The position numbers and the translations under genes are program-made. This document shows, piece after piece, positions 1,880-48,661 of a DNA stretch of 64,000 nt. The DNA is taken from positions 6,402 through 70,401 of the forward strand of contig CAVPLE010000149.1 of assembly GCA_963705865.1 (NCBI GenBank). Direction: 5' to 3'. How positions within the stretch are numbered: position 1 is the stretch's first letter; each line of letters starts with the position of its first letter. This stretch comes from an uncultured Holophagaceae bacterium (GTDB lineage Bacteria > Acidobacteriota > Holophagae > Holophagales > Holophagaceae). The notes below the pieces were generated by a model, which worked only from the letters and a program-made list of their open reading frames with translations, had not been told where the DNA came from and ran no database searches.

Positions 1880-2923
1880 GTGAGGGGCGGGACGCCATTC
1901 CCCGAGAAGCGGAACGGGCGCCAGGCCGTCCCCCTGAGGCGCCTGCAGTACACCCTGGCCCTGCTGGTGGCGGTCATCGTGGGCGGGGGGCTCGGTTATC
2001 ACCATCTGGCGCATCTCAACGCCCTCGATAGCCTCTACATGGCCGTCACCACCCTGTTCACGGTGGGCTTCCGGGAGCTGGGCGACGTGAATGCCCAGAC
2101 CAAGCTCTTCACGATCTTCTACCTCATCATCGGCCTGGGGACGGCTTCCTACGCCGTATCGAACCTGACCGCCCTGCTCCTGGAGGGTGACCTCAAGGGC
2201 TACATCATGGAGCGCCGCATGCAGAAGCGTCTGGACGACCTCAAGGACCACATCATCGTCTGCGGCTTCGGGAAGATGGGCTTCCAGGCCGCCTGGGAGC
2301 TGAAGAAGGCCGGTGTCCCGTTCGTCATCATCGAGCAGGACGATACCAAGGGACGAAGCCCCCGCTTCGCCGGCGAGCTGATCCTCTATGGCAACGCCAT
2401 GGACGAGATGATCCTGGAGCGTGCGAGCATCCGCACGGCCCGGGGGCTTATCACGGCCCTCACCACCGATGCCGATAATGTGCTGGTGACACTCACCGTG
2501 AAGCAGTTGCGACCAGATCTTCCGGTGGTGGCCCGCAGCGCCAAGCTGGGCACCGAGCGTCAGCTCAAGGCCGCGGGAGCCGATCACATCGTGAGCCCGT
2601 ACGAGATCGGGGGACGGCGCATGGCGGGCTTGCTGCTCAAACCCGAGATGATGAACTTCTTCGACATCGTGCTGCAGCAGGAGCAGTTCGAACTGGGCCT
2701 GGAGCGCATCGCCATCGCGCCGGGCTCCGCCCTGGTGGGCCAGACCATGCGGGAGGCCCGCCTGCGCCACGCCACCGGCTCGCTGCTCGTGGGCCTGGTT
2801 CATCCCGGCTCGAGATTGCAGTTCAACCCCTCCGGCGAAGAGCGCTTCCAGGCCGGCGACGAGCTGCTGGTGATGGGCCCGTCCGATGCCTTGGAGACCC
2901 TCACGCGGCTGGCCAAGGGCTGA
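1880..2923 (+). CDS. Potassium channel with TrkA-N and TrkA-C (RCK) domains
   Basis: Two TM helices around a TVGF filter; IIVCGFGKMG Rossmann motif; C-terminal RCK_C domain. Confidence 0.9.
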   Translation: MRGGTPFPEKRNGRQAVPLRRLQYTLALLVAVIVGGGLGYHHLAHLNALDSLYMAVTTLFTVGFRELGDVNAQTKLFTIFYLIIGLGTASYAVSNLTALLLEGDLKGYIMERRMQKRLDDLKDHIIVCGFGKMGFQAAWELKKAGVPFVIIEQDDTKGRSPRFAGELILYGNAMDEMILERASIRTARGLITALTTDADNVLVTLTVKQLRPDLPVVARSAKLGTERQLKAAGADHIVSPYEIGGRRMAGLLLKPEMMNFFDIVLQQEQFELGLERIAIAPGSALVGQTMREARLRHATGSLLVGLVHPGSRLQFNPSGEERFQAGDELLVMGPSDALETLTRLAKG

Positions 2924-2948
2924 TACCAGGTAGCGTTCAAAGATAGAG

Positions 2949-3133
2949 ATCCACCACGGAGACACCGAGGCCACAGAGGAGGCACGGAGGCCTCGGTGAT
3001 CCTCCGTCATGGGCAGGCCGAAGGCCGCTTCCGGCCAAGCCGGAAGCCACGGTAGGCGGCGGGCCCGGATCCTTTTGGGACATCCTGGCCCGCCGCCTAC
3101 CGTGTGCCCATGCTCTGTGCCTCCGTGGTGGAT
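2949..3133. repeat. REP/REPIN-like palindromic element, family A copy 1
   Basis: Perfect 13-bp terminal IR ATCCACCACGGAG...CTCCGTGGTGGAT with internal hairpins; homologous to 12666-12855 in inverted orientation. Confidence 0.85.
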
Positions 3134-3167
3134 TCTTTTACGATTGAACGCGAATGGGTATGAGGCC

Positions 3168-4299
3168 ATGGAAGGCCACGCCCGGCTCCTGCTGGACCTG
3201 GCCATGGTGCTGGGGGTCGCGGCGCTGACCTCGGTGCTGTTCCAGAAGCTGAAGCAGCCCGCGGTCCTGGGCTACCTCCTGGCGGACATGATCGTGGGCC
3301 CCCATGTGCCCGTGCCGCTGGTGGCGGACCTGGGCAACGTGCGACTCATGGGCGAGCTGGGCGTCATCCTGCTGATGTTCACCATCGGCCTGGAGTTCAG
3401 CCTGCCCCGGCTGCTCCGCGCCGGGCCGCCGGCCCTGCTGACGGGCACGCTCCAGGTGGGCACCCAGCTGGTGGCCGGATTCCTCGTGGCCCGCCTGCTG
3501 GGGTGGGCCCCCCTGGAGAGCGCCTTCTTCGGGGCCAGCCTCGCCATCGCCTCCACCATGATCCTCGCCAAGCTTTTCGACGAGCGCGGCATCCGCGGCC
3601 CGTTGAAGGAGACCGTCCTGGGCGTCCTGCTGGTGGAGGATCTCCACGCCGTGCCGCTGCTGGCGGCCCTGACGGCGGCGGCCTCCCTGGGTGGTCCCAG
3701 CGCCGGGGCCATCGCGGGCACGTTGCTGAAGCTGGCGGTGTTCCTCGCGGTGCTGGTGGGCGCGGGACGGCTGGTGGTGCCCCCCGCCGTGCGCTGGGTG
3801 GCGGATCATGGCCGCGACGAGGTGTGCTGCTGCTCACGGGCCTGCCCGTGCTGGCCGCCGTGCTGGCGCTGATCCCTCTGACCTCCCTCGGGACCCTGAG
3901 CGCGGCCACGGCCCTGGGGCGGTTCCCCTGCTGCTCTGGCGGCGCGCCCGGGGCCTCCAGCGGGATCTCGACGCGGGGGCCGAATGGTTGGGCGAGAACG
4001 CGCAGGATCCCTGGGGCCCGCCCGGGACCTCCGCCGCGCCATCCGCCGGCGGCTGGCGCACGCTCCGCATAGGGCCCCACTGCCCCTCCCTGGGCCGGAG
4101 CCTGGCGGAACTCGACCTGATCGGCGGTTCCAAGGTGGCCCTGGTGGCCCTCCTGCGGGAGGGGCATCTGCTGGAACCGCGACCGGAAGTCCTGCTCCAG
4201 CCCGGGGACGTGCTGGCCCTAAGCGGTTCGGGCTCGGCCCTGGATGCCGCGCAGTGGGTGCTGGGGCGGGAGTCGGAAACAGGGCCCTCCAAAAGTTGA
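3168..4299 (+). pseudogene. CPA2/Kef-type cation:proton antiporter with RCK_C domain; frameshifted and internally deleted
   Basis: N-terminus (LGELGVILLMFTIGLEFS) is in one frame. Frameshifts near 3825 and 3918, and the RCK_C domain (GRSLAELDL...LQPGDVLALSGS) is in a third frame. The TM region is much shorter than a full CPA2. Confidence 0.8.
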
Positions 4300-11605: not shown

Positions 11606-12649
11606 ATGCGCATCGGCATCCTGGGTTATGGCCGCTTCGGGCGCGCTCTGGGTGAGCTGCTCCGCGAGGCCGGCCATGGCTATCGGGCCTGGGATCCGGT
11701 GGCGGAGGTTCCAGCTGAACGCCTGGTGGGCGGGCTCTCGGAACTGGCGGAAACCTCCGAAACCTTGGTGCTGGCGGTGCCCATCGCCGCCCTGTCCGCG
11801 GCCCAGGCGAGCCTGAGGCCCCACCTCCGGCCGGACCACTTGCTCTTCGACGTGGGCAGCGTGAAGTCGGGCCCCTGCGCCCTCATGGACGCGCAATTGG
11901 GGGCTGCCATCCCCCACGCCGGGACGCATCCCCTGTTCGGCCCCGTGAGCCTGGCCCGGGCGGAACGGCCGCTGCGCGTGGTGCTCTGCCCGTCGGCCCA
12001 GCATCCCGCGGCCGCAGACCGGGTGCAGGCCCTGTTCGAAAGCCTGGGCTGTGAGGTGCTGCGCCAGAGCCCCGAGGACCACGACCGGGTGATGGCCACT
12101 ACCCACGCCCTCACGTTCTTCATCGCCAAGGGCCTGCTGGCCGTGGGCGCCGGGGCCGAGCTGCCCTTCACGCCGCCCTCCTTCCACGCCATCGCCCGCA
12201 CACTGGAGTCCGTGCGCGAGGACGCGGGCCACCTCTTCGCCGCCCTCCAGAACCAGAACCCCTTCGCCGCCGGGGCCCGGGAGGGCCTGCTGGAAGCCCT
12301 CTCCGCCATCCACCAGACCCTGGCGGAAGCCGTGGCCGAAGGCGCGGACGAGCAGCAGCTGGCCATCCCCAGCCTGGGGGAGCGGTCCCCCCTCCTCCAG
12401 GAGACCCGTGACCACATCGACGCCCTCGACCAGGACCTGGTGGCCCTCCTGGCCCGCCGCACCGAGCTGGTGCTCCGCGCCGGCCGCGCCAAGGCCGAGC
12501 TGGGCCTTCCCGTCCACGACCCGGACCGCGAAGCCTCGCAGCTCCAGGCCCGCCGCGCCTGGGCCCAGGAGGCGGGCCTGGATGTGCAGGGTGTGGAGGA
12601 CGTCTTCCGGGCCGTCCTGCGGGCCTCGCGCGCGGCTCAGGGACGGTAG
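11606..12649 (+). CDS. tyrA: Prephenate/arogenate dehydrogenase fused to a C-terminal chorismate mutase
   Basis: GILGYGRFG, DVGSVK, GTHPLFGP, EDHDRVMA; C-terminal RDHIDALDQDLVALLARR...DPDRE. Confidence 0.85.
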   Translation: MRIGILGYGRFGRALGELLREAGHGYRAWDPVAEVPAERLVGGLSELAETSETLVLAVPIAALSAAQASLRPHLRPDHLLFDVGSVKSGPCALMDAQLGAAIPHAGTHPLFGPVSLARAERPLRVVLCPSAQHPAAADRVQALFESLGCEVLRQSPEDHDRVMATTHALTFFIAKGLLAVGAGAELPFTPPSFHAIARTLESVREDAGHLFAALQNQNPFAAGAREGLLEALSAIHQTLAEAVAEGADEQQLAIPSLGERSPLLQETRDHIDALDQDLVALLARRTELVLRAGRAKAELGLPVHDPDREASQLQARRAWAQEAGLDVQGVEDVFRAVLRASRAAQGR

Positions 12650-12665
12650 TCAGCCTTCGCGTCAG

Positions 12666-12855
12666 GGATCCACCACGGAGACACGGAGCATGGGCACGCG
12701 GGAGGCGCCGGGTCCGGATCCTTCATGGAGTATCCGGACCCGGCGCCTCCCGTGGCTTCCGGCTTGGCCGGAAGCGGCCTTCGGCCTGCCCATGATGGAG
12801 GGGGACGGAGATCTCCGTGCCACCTCTGTGGTCTCCGTGTCTCCATGGTGGATCC
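12666..12855. repeat. REP/REPIN-like element, family A copy 2 (inverted relative to copy 1)
   Basis: Terminal IR GGATCCACCAYGGAGACACGGAG; a 45-nt block is identical to 3008-3052. Confidence 0.85.
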
Positions 12856-12879
12856 TTCGTATTGGCAGGCAAGCCGATG

Positions 12880-13581
12880 TCAGAAGGGCAGGTCCAGCGC
12901 CTTGCACAGGAAGGCGACGAGCGGGGAGGCCTGCCGGCAGGCGGCGGCCACCTGGTCGACGAAATCGGGCGCCAGCACCTGGGCGTTCGTGAAGCCGACG
13001 GAGGTGTAGAAGTCCTTGAGCTTGAGGTCCTCCGCGCAGGGATGATCGGGATCGAAGCCCTGGGGGACGCGTTTGAGCGCGTCTCCTTCAATCTCCAGCC
13101 CGGACTTCCGGAGGGCCTTCCACGCCGCGGGCTTGGCGACGATGGCTTGGCGGACCTTGAATAGCGAATCGGGATCCGGGTGCCAGAGGCCGCCGCCCGC
13201 GAAGCTGCCGCCGGGTTCCAGATGGAGGTAGAAGCCGGGTCCGTGGACGCCGCCAGCCTGCATGGTCCGGTGGGGGAAGTGGGCCGCGACGTGGGTCTTG
13301 TAGGGGGTCTTGTCCTTGGCGAACCGCGTGTCGCGGTAGATCCGGAACATGGAGCCGCCCGAGGGCCGCGGGTCGGCGATGAAGTGGCGGCTGAGCGATG
13401 CCAGCGGGCCGCTGAAGGCGGCGATGAGCCGCAGCATGGGCTCCCGGGCCTCGGCCTCGTACCGCGCCTTGTTCTCCAGGAACCACGCGCGCTCGTTGTG
13501 CGCCTTCAGGTCCTTCAGGAACCGGAAGAGGCCCGGGCCCAGCGGGTTCTCCAGGCCAGAGGGAGTCGTCTTCGCTGCCAC
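12880..13581 (-). CDS. DUF2461 (TIGR02453) family protein
   Basis: LKAHNERAWF, MFRIYRDTRFAKDKTPYKTH, GPGFYLHL; GTG start after GGAGG. Confidence 0.88.
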   Translation of the reverse strand: MAAKTTPSGLENPLGPGLFRFLKDLKAHNERAWFLENKARYEAEAREPMLRLIAAFSGPLASLSRHFIADPRPSGGSMFRIYRDTRFAKDKTPYKTHVAAHFPHRTMQAGGVHGPGFYLHLEPGGSFAGGGLWHPDPDSLFKVRQAIVAKPAAWKALRKSGLEIEGDALKRVPQGFDPDHPCAEDLKLKDFYTSVGFTNAQVLAPDFVDQVAAACRQASPLVAFLCKALDLPF

Positions 13582-19270: not shown

Positions 19271-19346
19271 CCACCGATGAACACAGATGAACACCGATGA
19301 AAGAATGATGTTGTTCTTATCGGTGTTCATCTGTGTTTATCGGTGG
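19271..19346. repeat. REP-like doublet, family B copy 1
   Basis: CCACCGATGAACACAGATGAACACCGAT ... ATCGGTGTTCATCTGTGTTTATCGGTGG. Confidence 0.9.
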
Positions 19347-20096: not shown

Positions 20097-20172
20097 CCAC
20101 CGATGAACACCGATAAACACCGATGAAAGAATGATTTGGTTCTTATCGGTGTTCATCTGTGTTTATCGGTGG
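20097..20172. repeat. REP-like doublet, family B copy 2
   Basis: Near-identical to 19271-19346 and in the same orientation. Confidence 0.9.
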
Positions 20173-22874: not shown

Positions 22875-23094
22875 AGCCACCGATTTCGCCGATGGCGGTG
22901 ATTGCGTCTCGGCGGATCGCCGCATGGGCCGGCCAGAGGCCGCTTCCGGCTTCACCGGAAGTCATGGGGGGCGCCAGGGTCGGGGCCTTCCAAGGGGCCG
23001 CGGCCCTGGCGCCCCCCATGGAGCCCATGCTGCGTTGGGACAGCGGCCTATCTTTCCATCTTTTCAATCACTGGAATCACTGAAATCGGTGGCT
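22875..23094. repeat. REP-like element with CCACCGATTTC ends and a family-A-type structured core
   Basis: Terminal IR AGCCACCGATTTC/GAAATCGGTGGCT; core CATGGG...GGCCGCTTCCGGC...CCCATG. Confidence 0.8.
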
Positions 23095-23127
23095 GAAGAA
23101 GCCTTTCCCAGACAGTGACCCGGCGCT

Positions 23128-48180: not shown

Positions 48181-48661
48181 ACAGGATTAACAGGATTAGA
48201 AGATGGATTAACAGGATGAAAGCCCCGGAGGATCTATCCGTCCCCAGGCGATTCGTCCTCCCCAGGAATCAGCCTGCCGCCAATGATCTAGCAGGTTTGA
48301 ATCCTGTTATCTCGTTATCGGCGAGTCTCAGCCTAACCAAAGGGATCAAGAGCCTCCACGAAGATCACGAAGAGGAAGGCGAAGGCCACGAAGGCAGGCC
48401 CCAGCGTCTCGGCCAGGGCATCCGGGCCTCTGGCCCCCGGTCGCGCATGGCGCGGCCGGCTTCACGGGCGGCGGCCATGGCGGCCCTTGAAAGCCGCCCG
48501 GGGCCGCCGCCCGTGAAGGGATGTCCGGGATGGGTCGAGCCCCATTCGCGTCCTTCGTGAACCCGCAGGGTACCTTCGTGTTCTTCGTGGAGATCTTTCC
48601 TGGCTGAGGCTCGCCGATAATCAGGTCCTGTTAATCTAGCCTTTCATCCTGTTAATCCTGT
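48181..48661. repeat. Nested three-layer REP-like palindrome
   Basis: IR pairs 48181-48196/48646-48661 (16/16), 48315-48333/48602-48620 (18/19) and 48354-48372/48574-48592 (18/19). Confidence 0.9.

Follow-up and report, generated by a model that had tools for sequence, protein, structure and literature searches.

Three-base-pair duplications of TNA within a palindromic CTNAG-like site are the hallmark of the DDE transposases of the IS5 family (IS1031/IS427) and of PIF-Harbinger, and likewise of the Tourist-like (Tourist-type) MITEs. BIMEs of E. coli and BOX elements of pneumococcus are mosaic, modular repeats, the BIMEs being composed of 20-40-nt REPs, linked to RAYT and devoid of target duplications (TSDs). 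PATEs derived from IS200/IS605 have neither terminal inverted repeats (TIRs) nor a TSD and insert 3' of a fixed short motif in one orientation. The classical bacterial MITEs are Correia/NEMIS of Neisseria, ERIC/IRU of enterobacteria and RUP of pneumococcus (PMC2229807, PMC10969869). They are intergenic, 100-250 bp long, carry TIRs and TSDs, fold as a simple 5'-3' stem-loop, occur nested and lie near gene ends (PMC2229807, PMC10969869). BIMEs are mentioned among the repeats in PMC2229807, and SPRITE is a mobile pneumococcal repeat that resembles a rho-independent terminator (PMC10969869). A conserved branched core common to several arm families is absent from these general MITE reviews (PMC2229807, PMC10969869), and full-text literature searches found no description of repeats of this kind in Geothrix. 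Most bacterial MITEs are simple foldbacks of recent origin that have diverged too little for tests of structure.

We analyzed a window of 64,000 nt, which corresponds to G000:C149:6402-70401 in its own assembly. This assembly (G000) is a soil MAG of 3.42 Mb in 202 contigs with 65.5% GC and 92% completeness, placed in the genus Geothrix by its relatives. The initial annotation had delimited a REP-like unit at 2949-3133. Conserved flanks and empty sites show that these limits are too narrow and that the 185-bp unit is the interior of a longer element at 2924-3160 (237 bp, TACC...GGTA). The 237-bp unit is probably a structured MITE, belonging to a superfamily that is limited, among the genomes searched, to Holophagaceae (Geothrix and relatives). 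This MITE superfamily is new and unusually well structured. The following features were assigned within the window.

2921-2923, plus strand: left copy of the TSD, TGA, doubling as the stop codon of the upstream plus-strand gene (a 383-codon ORF ends there; empty sites in relatives)
2924-3160, plus strand: complete family-A MITE, 237 bp (flank alignment of 34 copies, empty sites, metagenome depth)
2924-2961, plus strand: left terminal inverted repeat, TACCAGGTAGCGTTCAAAGATAGAGATCCACCACGGAG (pairs with 3121-3160 in folds; kept in all young copies)
2962-3006, plus strand: left arm interior with subrepeats of about 9-10 nt, CACCGAGG / CACAGAGG / CACGGAGG, and small side hairpins (sequence, fold)
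3007-3113, plus strand: four-way-junction core of the family-A element (92.2 bits with covariance model R1; covariation)
3121-3160, plus strand: right terminal inverted repeat, CTCCGTGGTGGATTCTTTTACGATTGAACGCGAATGGGTA (copy alignment, fold)
3161-3163, plus strand: right copy of the TSD, TGA (flank alignment, empty sites)
12640-12879, minus strand: older family-A copy with diverged outer ends, 84% identity over the inner unit; core at 12688-12795
22876-23095, plus strand: family-B element with CCACCGATTTC... arms; core at 22922-23030 (98 bits with the covariance model)
48416-48526, plus strand: diverged fourth core with P1-P4 architecture, at the centre of a nested-arm element at 48181-48661 (cmsearch, fold)

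When the 34 copies were aligned with their flanks, conservation was found to run past the 185-bp unit by 24 nt on the left and 27 nt on the right. The order of the element is TACCAGGTAGCGTTCAAAGATAGA, the 185-bp unit and TCTTTTACGATTGAACGCGAATGGGTA. Its ends form a 38/40-nt imperfect inverted repeat (TIRs of about 40 nt), which is paired in the folds of both strands. Outside the 237-bp ends, the copies are unrelated in sequence save for a T(G/C)A trinucleotide on either side. The inner 185-bp unit was also considered as an element with its own duplication and was rejected, since its flanks, ATA and TTT, differ. In contigs from four soil metagenome runs, the word depth over 2912-3166 was 10-60x that of the flanks and loose contig ends clustered at 2920/2921 and 3161-3164. 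The depth jump and the loose ends agree with the limits 2924-3160 and with a multi-copy element. In Holophagaceae MAGs, such elements give rise to spurious ORFs and interrupt assemblies; masking or annotation is advisable.

A BLASTN search of the whole assembly, proposed earlier as a check, returned 34 full-length copies of the 185-bp unit. Ten are identical to the copy at 2924-3160, 13 more are at least 98.9% identical to it and 11 are older (79-95%). Amplification of the 237-bp element in this genome is recent. Taken together with the fold z-scores given below, the 34 full-length copies place the observation far beyond chance. The element is small (237 bp) and non-coding, as judged from the copies between genes, and it has TIRs and many dispersed copies. 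It thus has all that defines a bacterial MITE except an identified parent IS.

The inverted homology between 2949-3133 and 12666-12855 noted in the initial annotation was confirmed, with about 84% identity over the whole length. Both copies hold the identical 45-nt block CATGGGCAGG...CCACGG, and the adjoining long hairpin differs in sequence with its pairing kept in both, as had been stated. The copy at 12640-12879 is flanked by TGA on the minus strand (12880-12882 and 12637-12639). The third core of the form CATGGGC...GCCCATG was also correctly recognized inside different ends, at 22922-23030 within CCACCGATTTC/GAAATCGGTGG arms. The outer limits of this family-B element are uncertain, its inverted repeat reaching about 20 nt further out. 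The same combination of family-B arm and core is present in other Geothrix species. What had been called a related piece in the element at 48181 is in fact the complete, diverged fourth core at 48416-48526. It was detected with 33.7 bits (E 2.2e-6; cmsearch with filters off), and its DNA fold (-63 kcal/mol, z -6.2) has the four-way shape as the MFE structure.

Insertion was analyzed by comparing occupied and empty sites. At the locus of the 2924-3160 copy, five of the 30 relatives searched (G010, G005, G014, G002 and G009) have the flanks abutting with one TGA and no element. The empty site reads ...AAGGGC TGA GGCCATGG..., and in G000 it reads ...AAGGGC TGA (237 bp) TGA GGCCATGG.... A second locus on contig C140 has TCA (237 bp) TCA versus a single TCA in G014. 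Both loci show that the element truly inserted and duplicated 3 bp of its target in doing so. The earlier proposal of a non-autonomous mobile unit is borne out by the empty sites, by the TSD and by the set of 23 copies that are nearly identical. The empty-site allele was not seen among the metagenome contigs of the four soil runs.

The flanks were next counted in the 22 young copies with both flanks readable. Identical trinucleotides flank 16 of them (nine TGA/TGA, six TCA/TCA, one TAA/TAA), and the central base of the TSD is G or C in 21 of the 22, the remaining one being TAA. The left flank of the TAA copy, on C96, is not conserved in relatives. An oriented target logo was made from 16 sites with direct flanks (15 young copies and one older copy, C104). 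It has C at position -1 in 14 of the 16 sites and G at +1 in 12 of them, which gives the target C-T(G/C)A-G (C-TSA-G). Insertion occurs in either orientation and duplicates the 3-bp TNA at the centre of a palindromic target of the CTNAG type.

The remaining six young copies have unlike flanks (four TGA...TCA, two TCA...TGA), which a simple TSD does not predict for the MITE. Three older copies are also flanked by TGA...TCA. At least two of the young copies with unlike flanks, those on C84 and C141, sit exactly between the stop codons of convergent genes. These two are visibly chimeric, with one end from an older subfamily and the remainder identical to the young master. Copies of this type may have arisen by recombination between two copies that had inserted at neighbouring stop codons.

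For about 16 of 26 copies, an ORF of 88 codons or more ends with the duplicated triplet as its stop codon. Genome-wide, by comparison, only 164 of the 4,943 CTSAG sites are confident stop codons on a crude gene map. Between convergent genes we found 22 of 36 cores, and between divergent genes none. The element at 2924-3160 separates two co-directional genes that are only 4 nt apart in relatives. A cluster of three elements lies in L087 amid ordinary wza, panB, panC and glycosyltransferase genes. NNC-TGA-G would be the commonest stop-codon context in a genome of 65% GC, and insertions within genes would be purged, which may account for the survivors at stop codons and between convergent genes. 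The C-TGA-G preference puts a hairpin of -154 kcal/mol exactly at stop codons. Members of Geothrix are environmentally important iron reducers, in which the elements probably alter gene 3' ends and the coupling of operons.

As judged from the sequence, the footprint is the signature of IS5/PIF-Harbinger-type DDE transposition, and not of an HUH/ssDNA process. The element would accordingly be a short non-coding passenger, mobilized in trans by a TNA-duplicating DDE transposase of the IS5 / PIF-Harbinger type (IS1031-like). With Tourist-like, IS5 and PIF-Harbinger elements it shares the 3-bp TNA duplication, the short non-coding form with TIRs, the many near-identical copies and the genic neighbourhoods. 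In contrast to IS5 and PIF-Harbinger, the central base of its target is mostly G or C, as in 21 of the 22 young copies. Its termini, TACC...GCGTTCAA, also differ from those of the IS5-family elements of Geothrix (GGG/GAG...TGTTT ends).

An autonomous IS with matching ends was not found in the 92%-complete MAG. A fuzzy search of this genome found the outer TIR only in pairs 94-237 bp apart. With a strict TIR pattern, IS-sized end pairs were absent from 61 genomes of the genus; pairs spaced by about 500 bp are present in G049. Pfam transposase searches in the 61 genomes did not reveal an IS with matching ends either. In G000, the Pfam models DDE_Tnp_1, DDE_Tnp_4, DDE_Tnp_1_2 and DUF4096 detected remnants only. 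On C113 lies a truncated remnant of the IS5 family, with TAA at its flanks; contig C156 ends in part of an IS4-like transposase, and one degenerate DUF772/DDE ORF lacks recognizable ends. A self-BLAST of the genome for IS-sized inverted repeats yielded CRISPR repeats only. MAGs usually lose IS copies. The IS427-/IS1031-like IS of relatives have GGG.../GAG... ends and CTAG targets, and not TACC.... For example, G037 contains seven copies of an 867-bp IS5-family IS with GGGCC.../GAGGG... ends, one of which is inserted into a family-A MITE. Comparison of the termini of the IS427-like element of G037 (GGGCCTGTTTTCAAAGTC), the remnant on C113 (GAGGGTGTTTACAAATTC) and the IS of G048 (GAGGGTGTAGCC) with TACCAGGTAGCGTTCAAAG showed only the stretch TTCAAAG in common.

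Folding of the whole element gave, on either strand, one long hairpin (an imperfect palindrome) with a branched tip. The RNA fold of the plus strand has -154.2 kcal/mol (z -11.8), and the DNA fold of the minus strand has -92.7 kcal/mol (z -13.1). The CATGGGC...GCCCATG core is a four-way junction consisting of a closing stem P1 and three hairpins. In the core at 3007-3113, these are P1 (3008-3015 with 3105-3112), P2 (3016-3026, GAA loop), P3 (3027-3047, CAA loop) and P4 (3049-3104). P1 is formed by GCATGGGC with GCCCATGC. P2 is a 5-bp hairpin, CCGCC-NNA-GGCGG, mostly with a GNA triloop, P3 is a 9-bp hairpin, CTTCCGGC-NNN-GCCGGAAG, and P4 is a 20-25-bp hairpin of free sequence. In a second genus, the architecture is kept and the sequences of P1, P3 and P4 are different. 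One example has P1 formed by GAAGCCGC with GCGGCTTC and P3 formed by CTTGCCGC-TGC-GCGGCAAG.

The element resembles Correia/NEMIS, ERIC/IRU and RUP in its intergenic size class, TIRs, TSDs, stem-loop folds and nesting. In contrast to these classical MITEs, the tip of the Geothrix element is a four-way junction that covaries across genera and is common to families with unrelated arms. Its arms consist of 7-10-nt tandem subrepeats, and its host genome is GC-rich, not AT-rich.

The conservation of pairing was evaluated with two alignments, a MAFFT alignment of 67 sequences and an alignment of 86 sequences fitted to the covariance model, which included the second genus. P1 pairing had been required when the sequences were cut out. 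In the MAFFT alignment, 92.1% of the cells were paired in the named structure, compared with 82.5% for shuffled partners and about 40% for slid ones. The model-fitted alignment, which leans towards the model, gave 94.2% for the named structure, 77.8% for shuffled and 33-48% for slid partners. Changes on both sides were seen in 28 of 46 pairs (MAFFT) and 37 of 43 pairs (model-fitted); the earlier claim that the structure is kept through compensatory change is upheld by the latter and by the paired cells of the MAFFT alignment. The covariation score was 0.246 against 0.096 after shuffling in the MAFFT alignment, and 0.408 against 0.113 in the model-fitted one, with 0 of 500 shuffles as high in either case. 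The collecting pattern fixed parts of P1-P3, therefore the sequence invariance of these parts is partly ascertainment. Free of the biases from the pattern and from the P1 requirement are P4, a CG/GC flip in P2 (46 vs 20) and a UA/CG switch in P3 (58 vs 9, no intermediates). The covariation of the core is very strong. Across genera, the tip keeps its branched four-helix architecture although the sequences of three helices change, which is a rare clean signal of constraint beyond the terminal repeats in a non-autonomous transposon.

We then determined the distribution of the core. The exact IUPAC pattern of P1-P3 matched more than 102 loci in a set with one genome for each of 185,579 species. 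All 80 record titles among the matches listed name Geothrix, Holophagaceae, Holophagales or an Acidobacteria MAG, and no viral contigs matched the pattern. In G000, covariance model R1 identified 42 full cores, 35 of family A (the 34 full-length copies and a chimeric copy on C142) and 7 of other arm families. The R1 core was present in 47 of 126 Holophagaceae genomes, including 41 of 59 from the genus, and in 0 of 24 genomes from two sister families. No R1 match at E <= 1e-8 was obtained in 18 of the 59 genomes of the genus, complete ones among them.

In a tree of the cores, the groups mostly correspond to arm classes (CACGGAG, CACCGAT/CAGTGAT, CACAGAT, CACGGAAG and GGTGATG types). Core phylogeny mostly tracks arm type, pointing to common descent, and the arm families are best regarded as lineages that diverged from a single ancestral design. 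Mosaics are nevertheless common. In G. fermentans, which has several families, elements combine a left arm of the CGCAGAG type with a right arm of the CACAGAT type, and other genomes have one core with its GGGGATG-type right arm behind three different left arms. At G000:C142:2323-2586, the left arm is of family B and continues at P1 into a core and a right arm of family A, both 100% identical to the master of that family. The suggestion that the elements swap ends therefore holds insofar as real chimeras exist, whereas the core phylogeny mostly follows the arms. Descent with divergence, together with recombination between elements at the shared core, would produce such a mosaic of arms. End swapping likely reflects recombination at the shared core and not a dedicated shuffling mechanism.

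We also observed shortened forms. Deletion derivatives of 94 and 162 bp match the master outside the deletion, metagenome contigs contain a 134-bp skip, and truncated copies break off within the loops of P3 and P4. Elements of 70-80 bp that consist of arms only are frequent, with 26 CGCAGAT-type and 7 CACCGATGAA-type loci without a core. Since central deletion was directly observed, the arms-only forms are more simply explained as deletion products.

Two other accounts of mobility were weighed against a MITE moved as a whole by a DDE transposase. The arms-only elements would also be expected if the core were an independent small mobile or hitchhiking module that inserts into the loops of palindromic arm elements in the manner of Russian dolls, each family having gained it separately. 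Real nesting does occur, as a family-A MITE lies inside P4 of another element at TTA-TACC (L083), an IS was found inside a MITE, and the one core and right arm behind three left arms would fit as well. However, a comparison of arms-only with arms-plus-core elements of one family revealed no duplication or defined ends around the core, the 94-bp and 162-bp derivatives and the 134-bp skip show central deletion directly, and the core tree largely follows arm class. We regard an independently inserting core as very unlikely. The other account, a REP/BIME-like element moved on single-stranded hairpins by a RAYT-type (HUH, Y1) transposase, is close to the ssDNA/HUH unit envisaged in the initial annotation. 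As in BIMEs and BOX, modules are variously combined, left and right parts can belong to different classes, and the palindromic, mosaic elements are intergenic and often between convergent genes; the hairpin stems P2 and P3 are moreover conserved in sequence. In contrast to BIMEs, the Geothrix element has a single large structured core, and its 237 bp, long TIRs of about 40 nt and true 3-bp duplication, established by empty sites, do not agree with palindromes of 20-40 nt that lack target duplication. Insertions occur in both orientations, and Y1_Tnp (PF01797) had no match in the 92%-complete genome G000, with controls matching in 6 of 14 genomes. A RAYT-type origin is therefore extremely improbable, and the HUH mechanism is not supported. 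An IS200/IS605-derived PATE was rejected too, as the flanks match on both sides (TGA/TGA, TCA/TCA, TAA/TAA) in either orientation.

Explanations for the core itself were weighed as well. If the core belonged to a strand-specific structured RNA, either an sRNA gene or a cis-regulatory 3'-UTR element carried on the repeats, one would expect the very stable fold (-154 kcal/mol, z -11.8), the strong covariation, the position at gene 3' ends and the T-rich tracts that follow the outer stem in both orientations (TCTTTTAC and TCTATCTTT). But selection on a one-strand transcript should leave G·U in place and remove A·C, and the stem mismatches comprise 83 cells of the G·T type and 95 of the A·C type. 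Both orientations are equally used, with 10 vs 7 relative to the targeted gene (by TSD type) and 30 vs 25 in co-directional gene pairs (own and other genomes pooled), and both strands fold equally well. Ribozymes and riboswitches have a conserved single-stranded core; here, pairing in the stems is nearly perfect, 0-3 nucleotides are unpaired at the junction and no conserved single-stranded core is present. Rfam 15 gave no match over the whole window at the gathering threshold, relaxed Rfam searches of two elements gave only sub-threshold look-alikes of miRNA hairpins, and the 18 genomes of the genus lacking a match at E <= 1e-8 also speak against an RNA gene. A simple terminator scan was empty, though its loop limit excludes such branched stems. 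The balanced mismatches and the lack of orientation bias make the strand-specific RNA proposed in the initial annotation unlikely, and with the further evidence we consider it highly improbable. We conclude that the constraint is symmetric on both strands, acting on the DNA or on transcripts of either orientation.

Strand symmetry of the mismatches and of the orientations would equally follow if pairing were kept, without any function, by a mutational process of palindromes such as intrastrand template switching, quasi-palindrome correction or gene conversion between arms. Hairpin-associated deletions with breakpoints at loops are frequent, and the patchy occurrence even within the genus (41 of 59 genomes) is what selfish DNA predicts. 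Correction alone, however, does not explain why P2 and its xxA triloop are conserved and the junction geometry is preserved, nor why the four-helix architecture, the helix lengths and the 3-nt loops persist across genera with the sequences of P1, P3 and P4 replaced. A purely mutational origin of the pairing thus appears unlikely. We give at best an even chance to the reading that the core is a hairpin module which acts at the level of the DNA, symmetrically on both strands, or independently of orientation, and is not an RNA gene. In 52 of 67 sequences, P2 has a GNA loop with a closing C-G pair; the final A had been fixed by the pattern. The sequence d(C-GNA-G) is a classic extra-stable DNA mini-hairpin, and the triloop of P2 hints at folding as DNA. 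Such a hairpin module may be kept because a foldback or cruciform form helps mobilization; alternatively, it might turn the insertion into a 3'-end hairpin that the flanking genes tolerate or profit from. A more specific proposal, which we think quite unlikely, is a functional structured-DNA module with a Holliday-junction-like (cruciform) tip and an ultra-stable GNA-triloop mini-hairpin. This module would be bound by a putative dedicated protein, either a transposase accessory or a host junction-binding enzyme, would be needed to mobilize an entire superfamily of elements whose arms are otherwise unrelated, and would serve as the point at which ends are exchanged. If true, a junction module recognized by a protein would be a mode of MITE organization not described so far.

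Finally, the element was compared with SPRITE. Both have a terminator-like look, and the Geothrix element combines a very stable stem with T-rich tracts in both orientations, directly after stop codons. In contrast to SPRITE, its stem is branched and about five times larger. The branching is also the reason why the terminator scan, made with a consensus, found none. The T-rich tracts on both strands make a putative role as bidirectional terminator or stabilizer possible.

Contigs from two soil metagenome runs, X2 and X3, carry a derivative of the window's family-A MITE in which the core is deleted, with 134 bp skipped (window 2978-3113). The core-deleted derivative is a form that circulates in the environment. 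Within the window, two palindromes consist of arms without a core:

Window 19271-19346, arms-only palindrome of 76 bp, arms CCACCGATGAACAC...
Window 20097-20172, arms-only palindrome of 76 bp, arms CCACCGATGAACAC...

In other genomes (loci L066 and L005), arms of the CCACCGATGAACAC type come with a core. In two public assemblies, G. paludis and another Geothrix record (L025, about 2057, minus strand, and L091), long homopolymer runs of G and C stand in place of the core's hairpin P4; they probably arose as an artefact of sequencing or assembly at this hairpin.

Family-A-type termini (TACCAAGTTGCGTTCAA) were also found as more widely spaced pairs in the related genome G049:

G049:C18:216528-217033, termini paired about 500 bp apart
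G049:C26:84864-85359, termini paired about 500 bp apart

This spacing is twice the normal element length. Nesting or a composite make-up of elements may account for the pairs, or they may bound a longer relative.

The complete genome of a relative, G037, harbors seven copies of an 867-bp IS5-family (IS427-like) insertion sequence with ends CTAG|GGCCTGTTTTCAAAGTC. One copy landed within a family-A MITE, between the outer TIR and GATCCACC. An IS5-family transposase remnant lies in the window's own genome, G000:

L150:911-1777 (G037:C1, about 2816374-2817240), the 867-bp IS427-like copy that sits inside the MITE
G000:C113:22248-22873, the transposase remnant, truncated at its 5' end and terminating in ...GTAAACACCCTC, with TAA next to it

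A probe from this end of contig C113 has as its initial 254 nt (C113:22001-22254) the upstream flank and very start of this remnant, and this 254-nt stretch recurs at C152:8745-8998.

At the window insertion (2918-2930 and 3155-3175), a gene pair is split whose stop-to-start distance in relatives is 4 nt (TGAGGCCATGG). Here 240 bp of hairpin now displace the native sequence formerly upstream of the downstream gene's start.

Outside the window, a self-BLAST of G000 aimed at inverted repeats also revealed palindromic repeats of ~28 nt (GGTTCATCCCCGCGTGCGCGGGGAACGG) at G000:C84:66-6074, with spacings typical of a CRISPR array.
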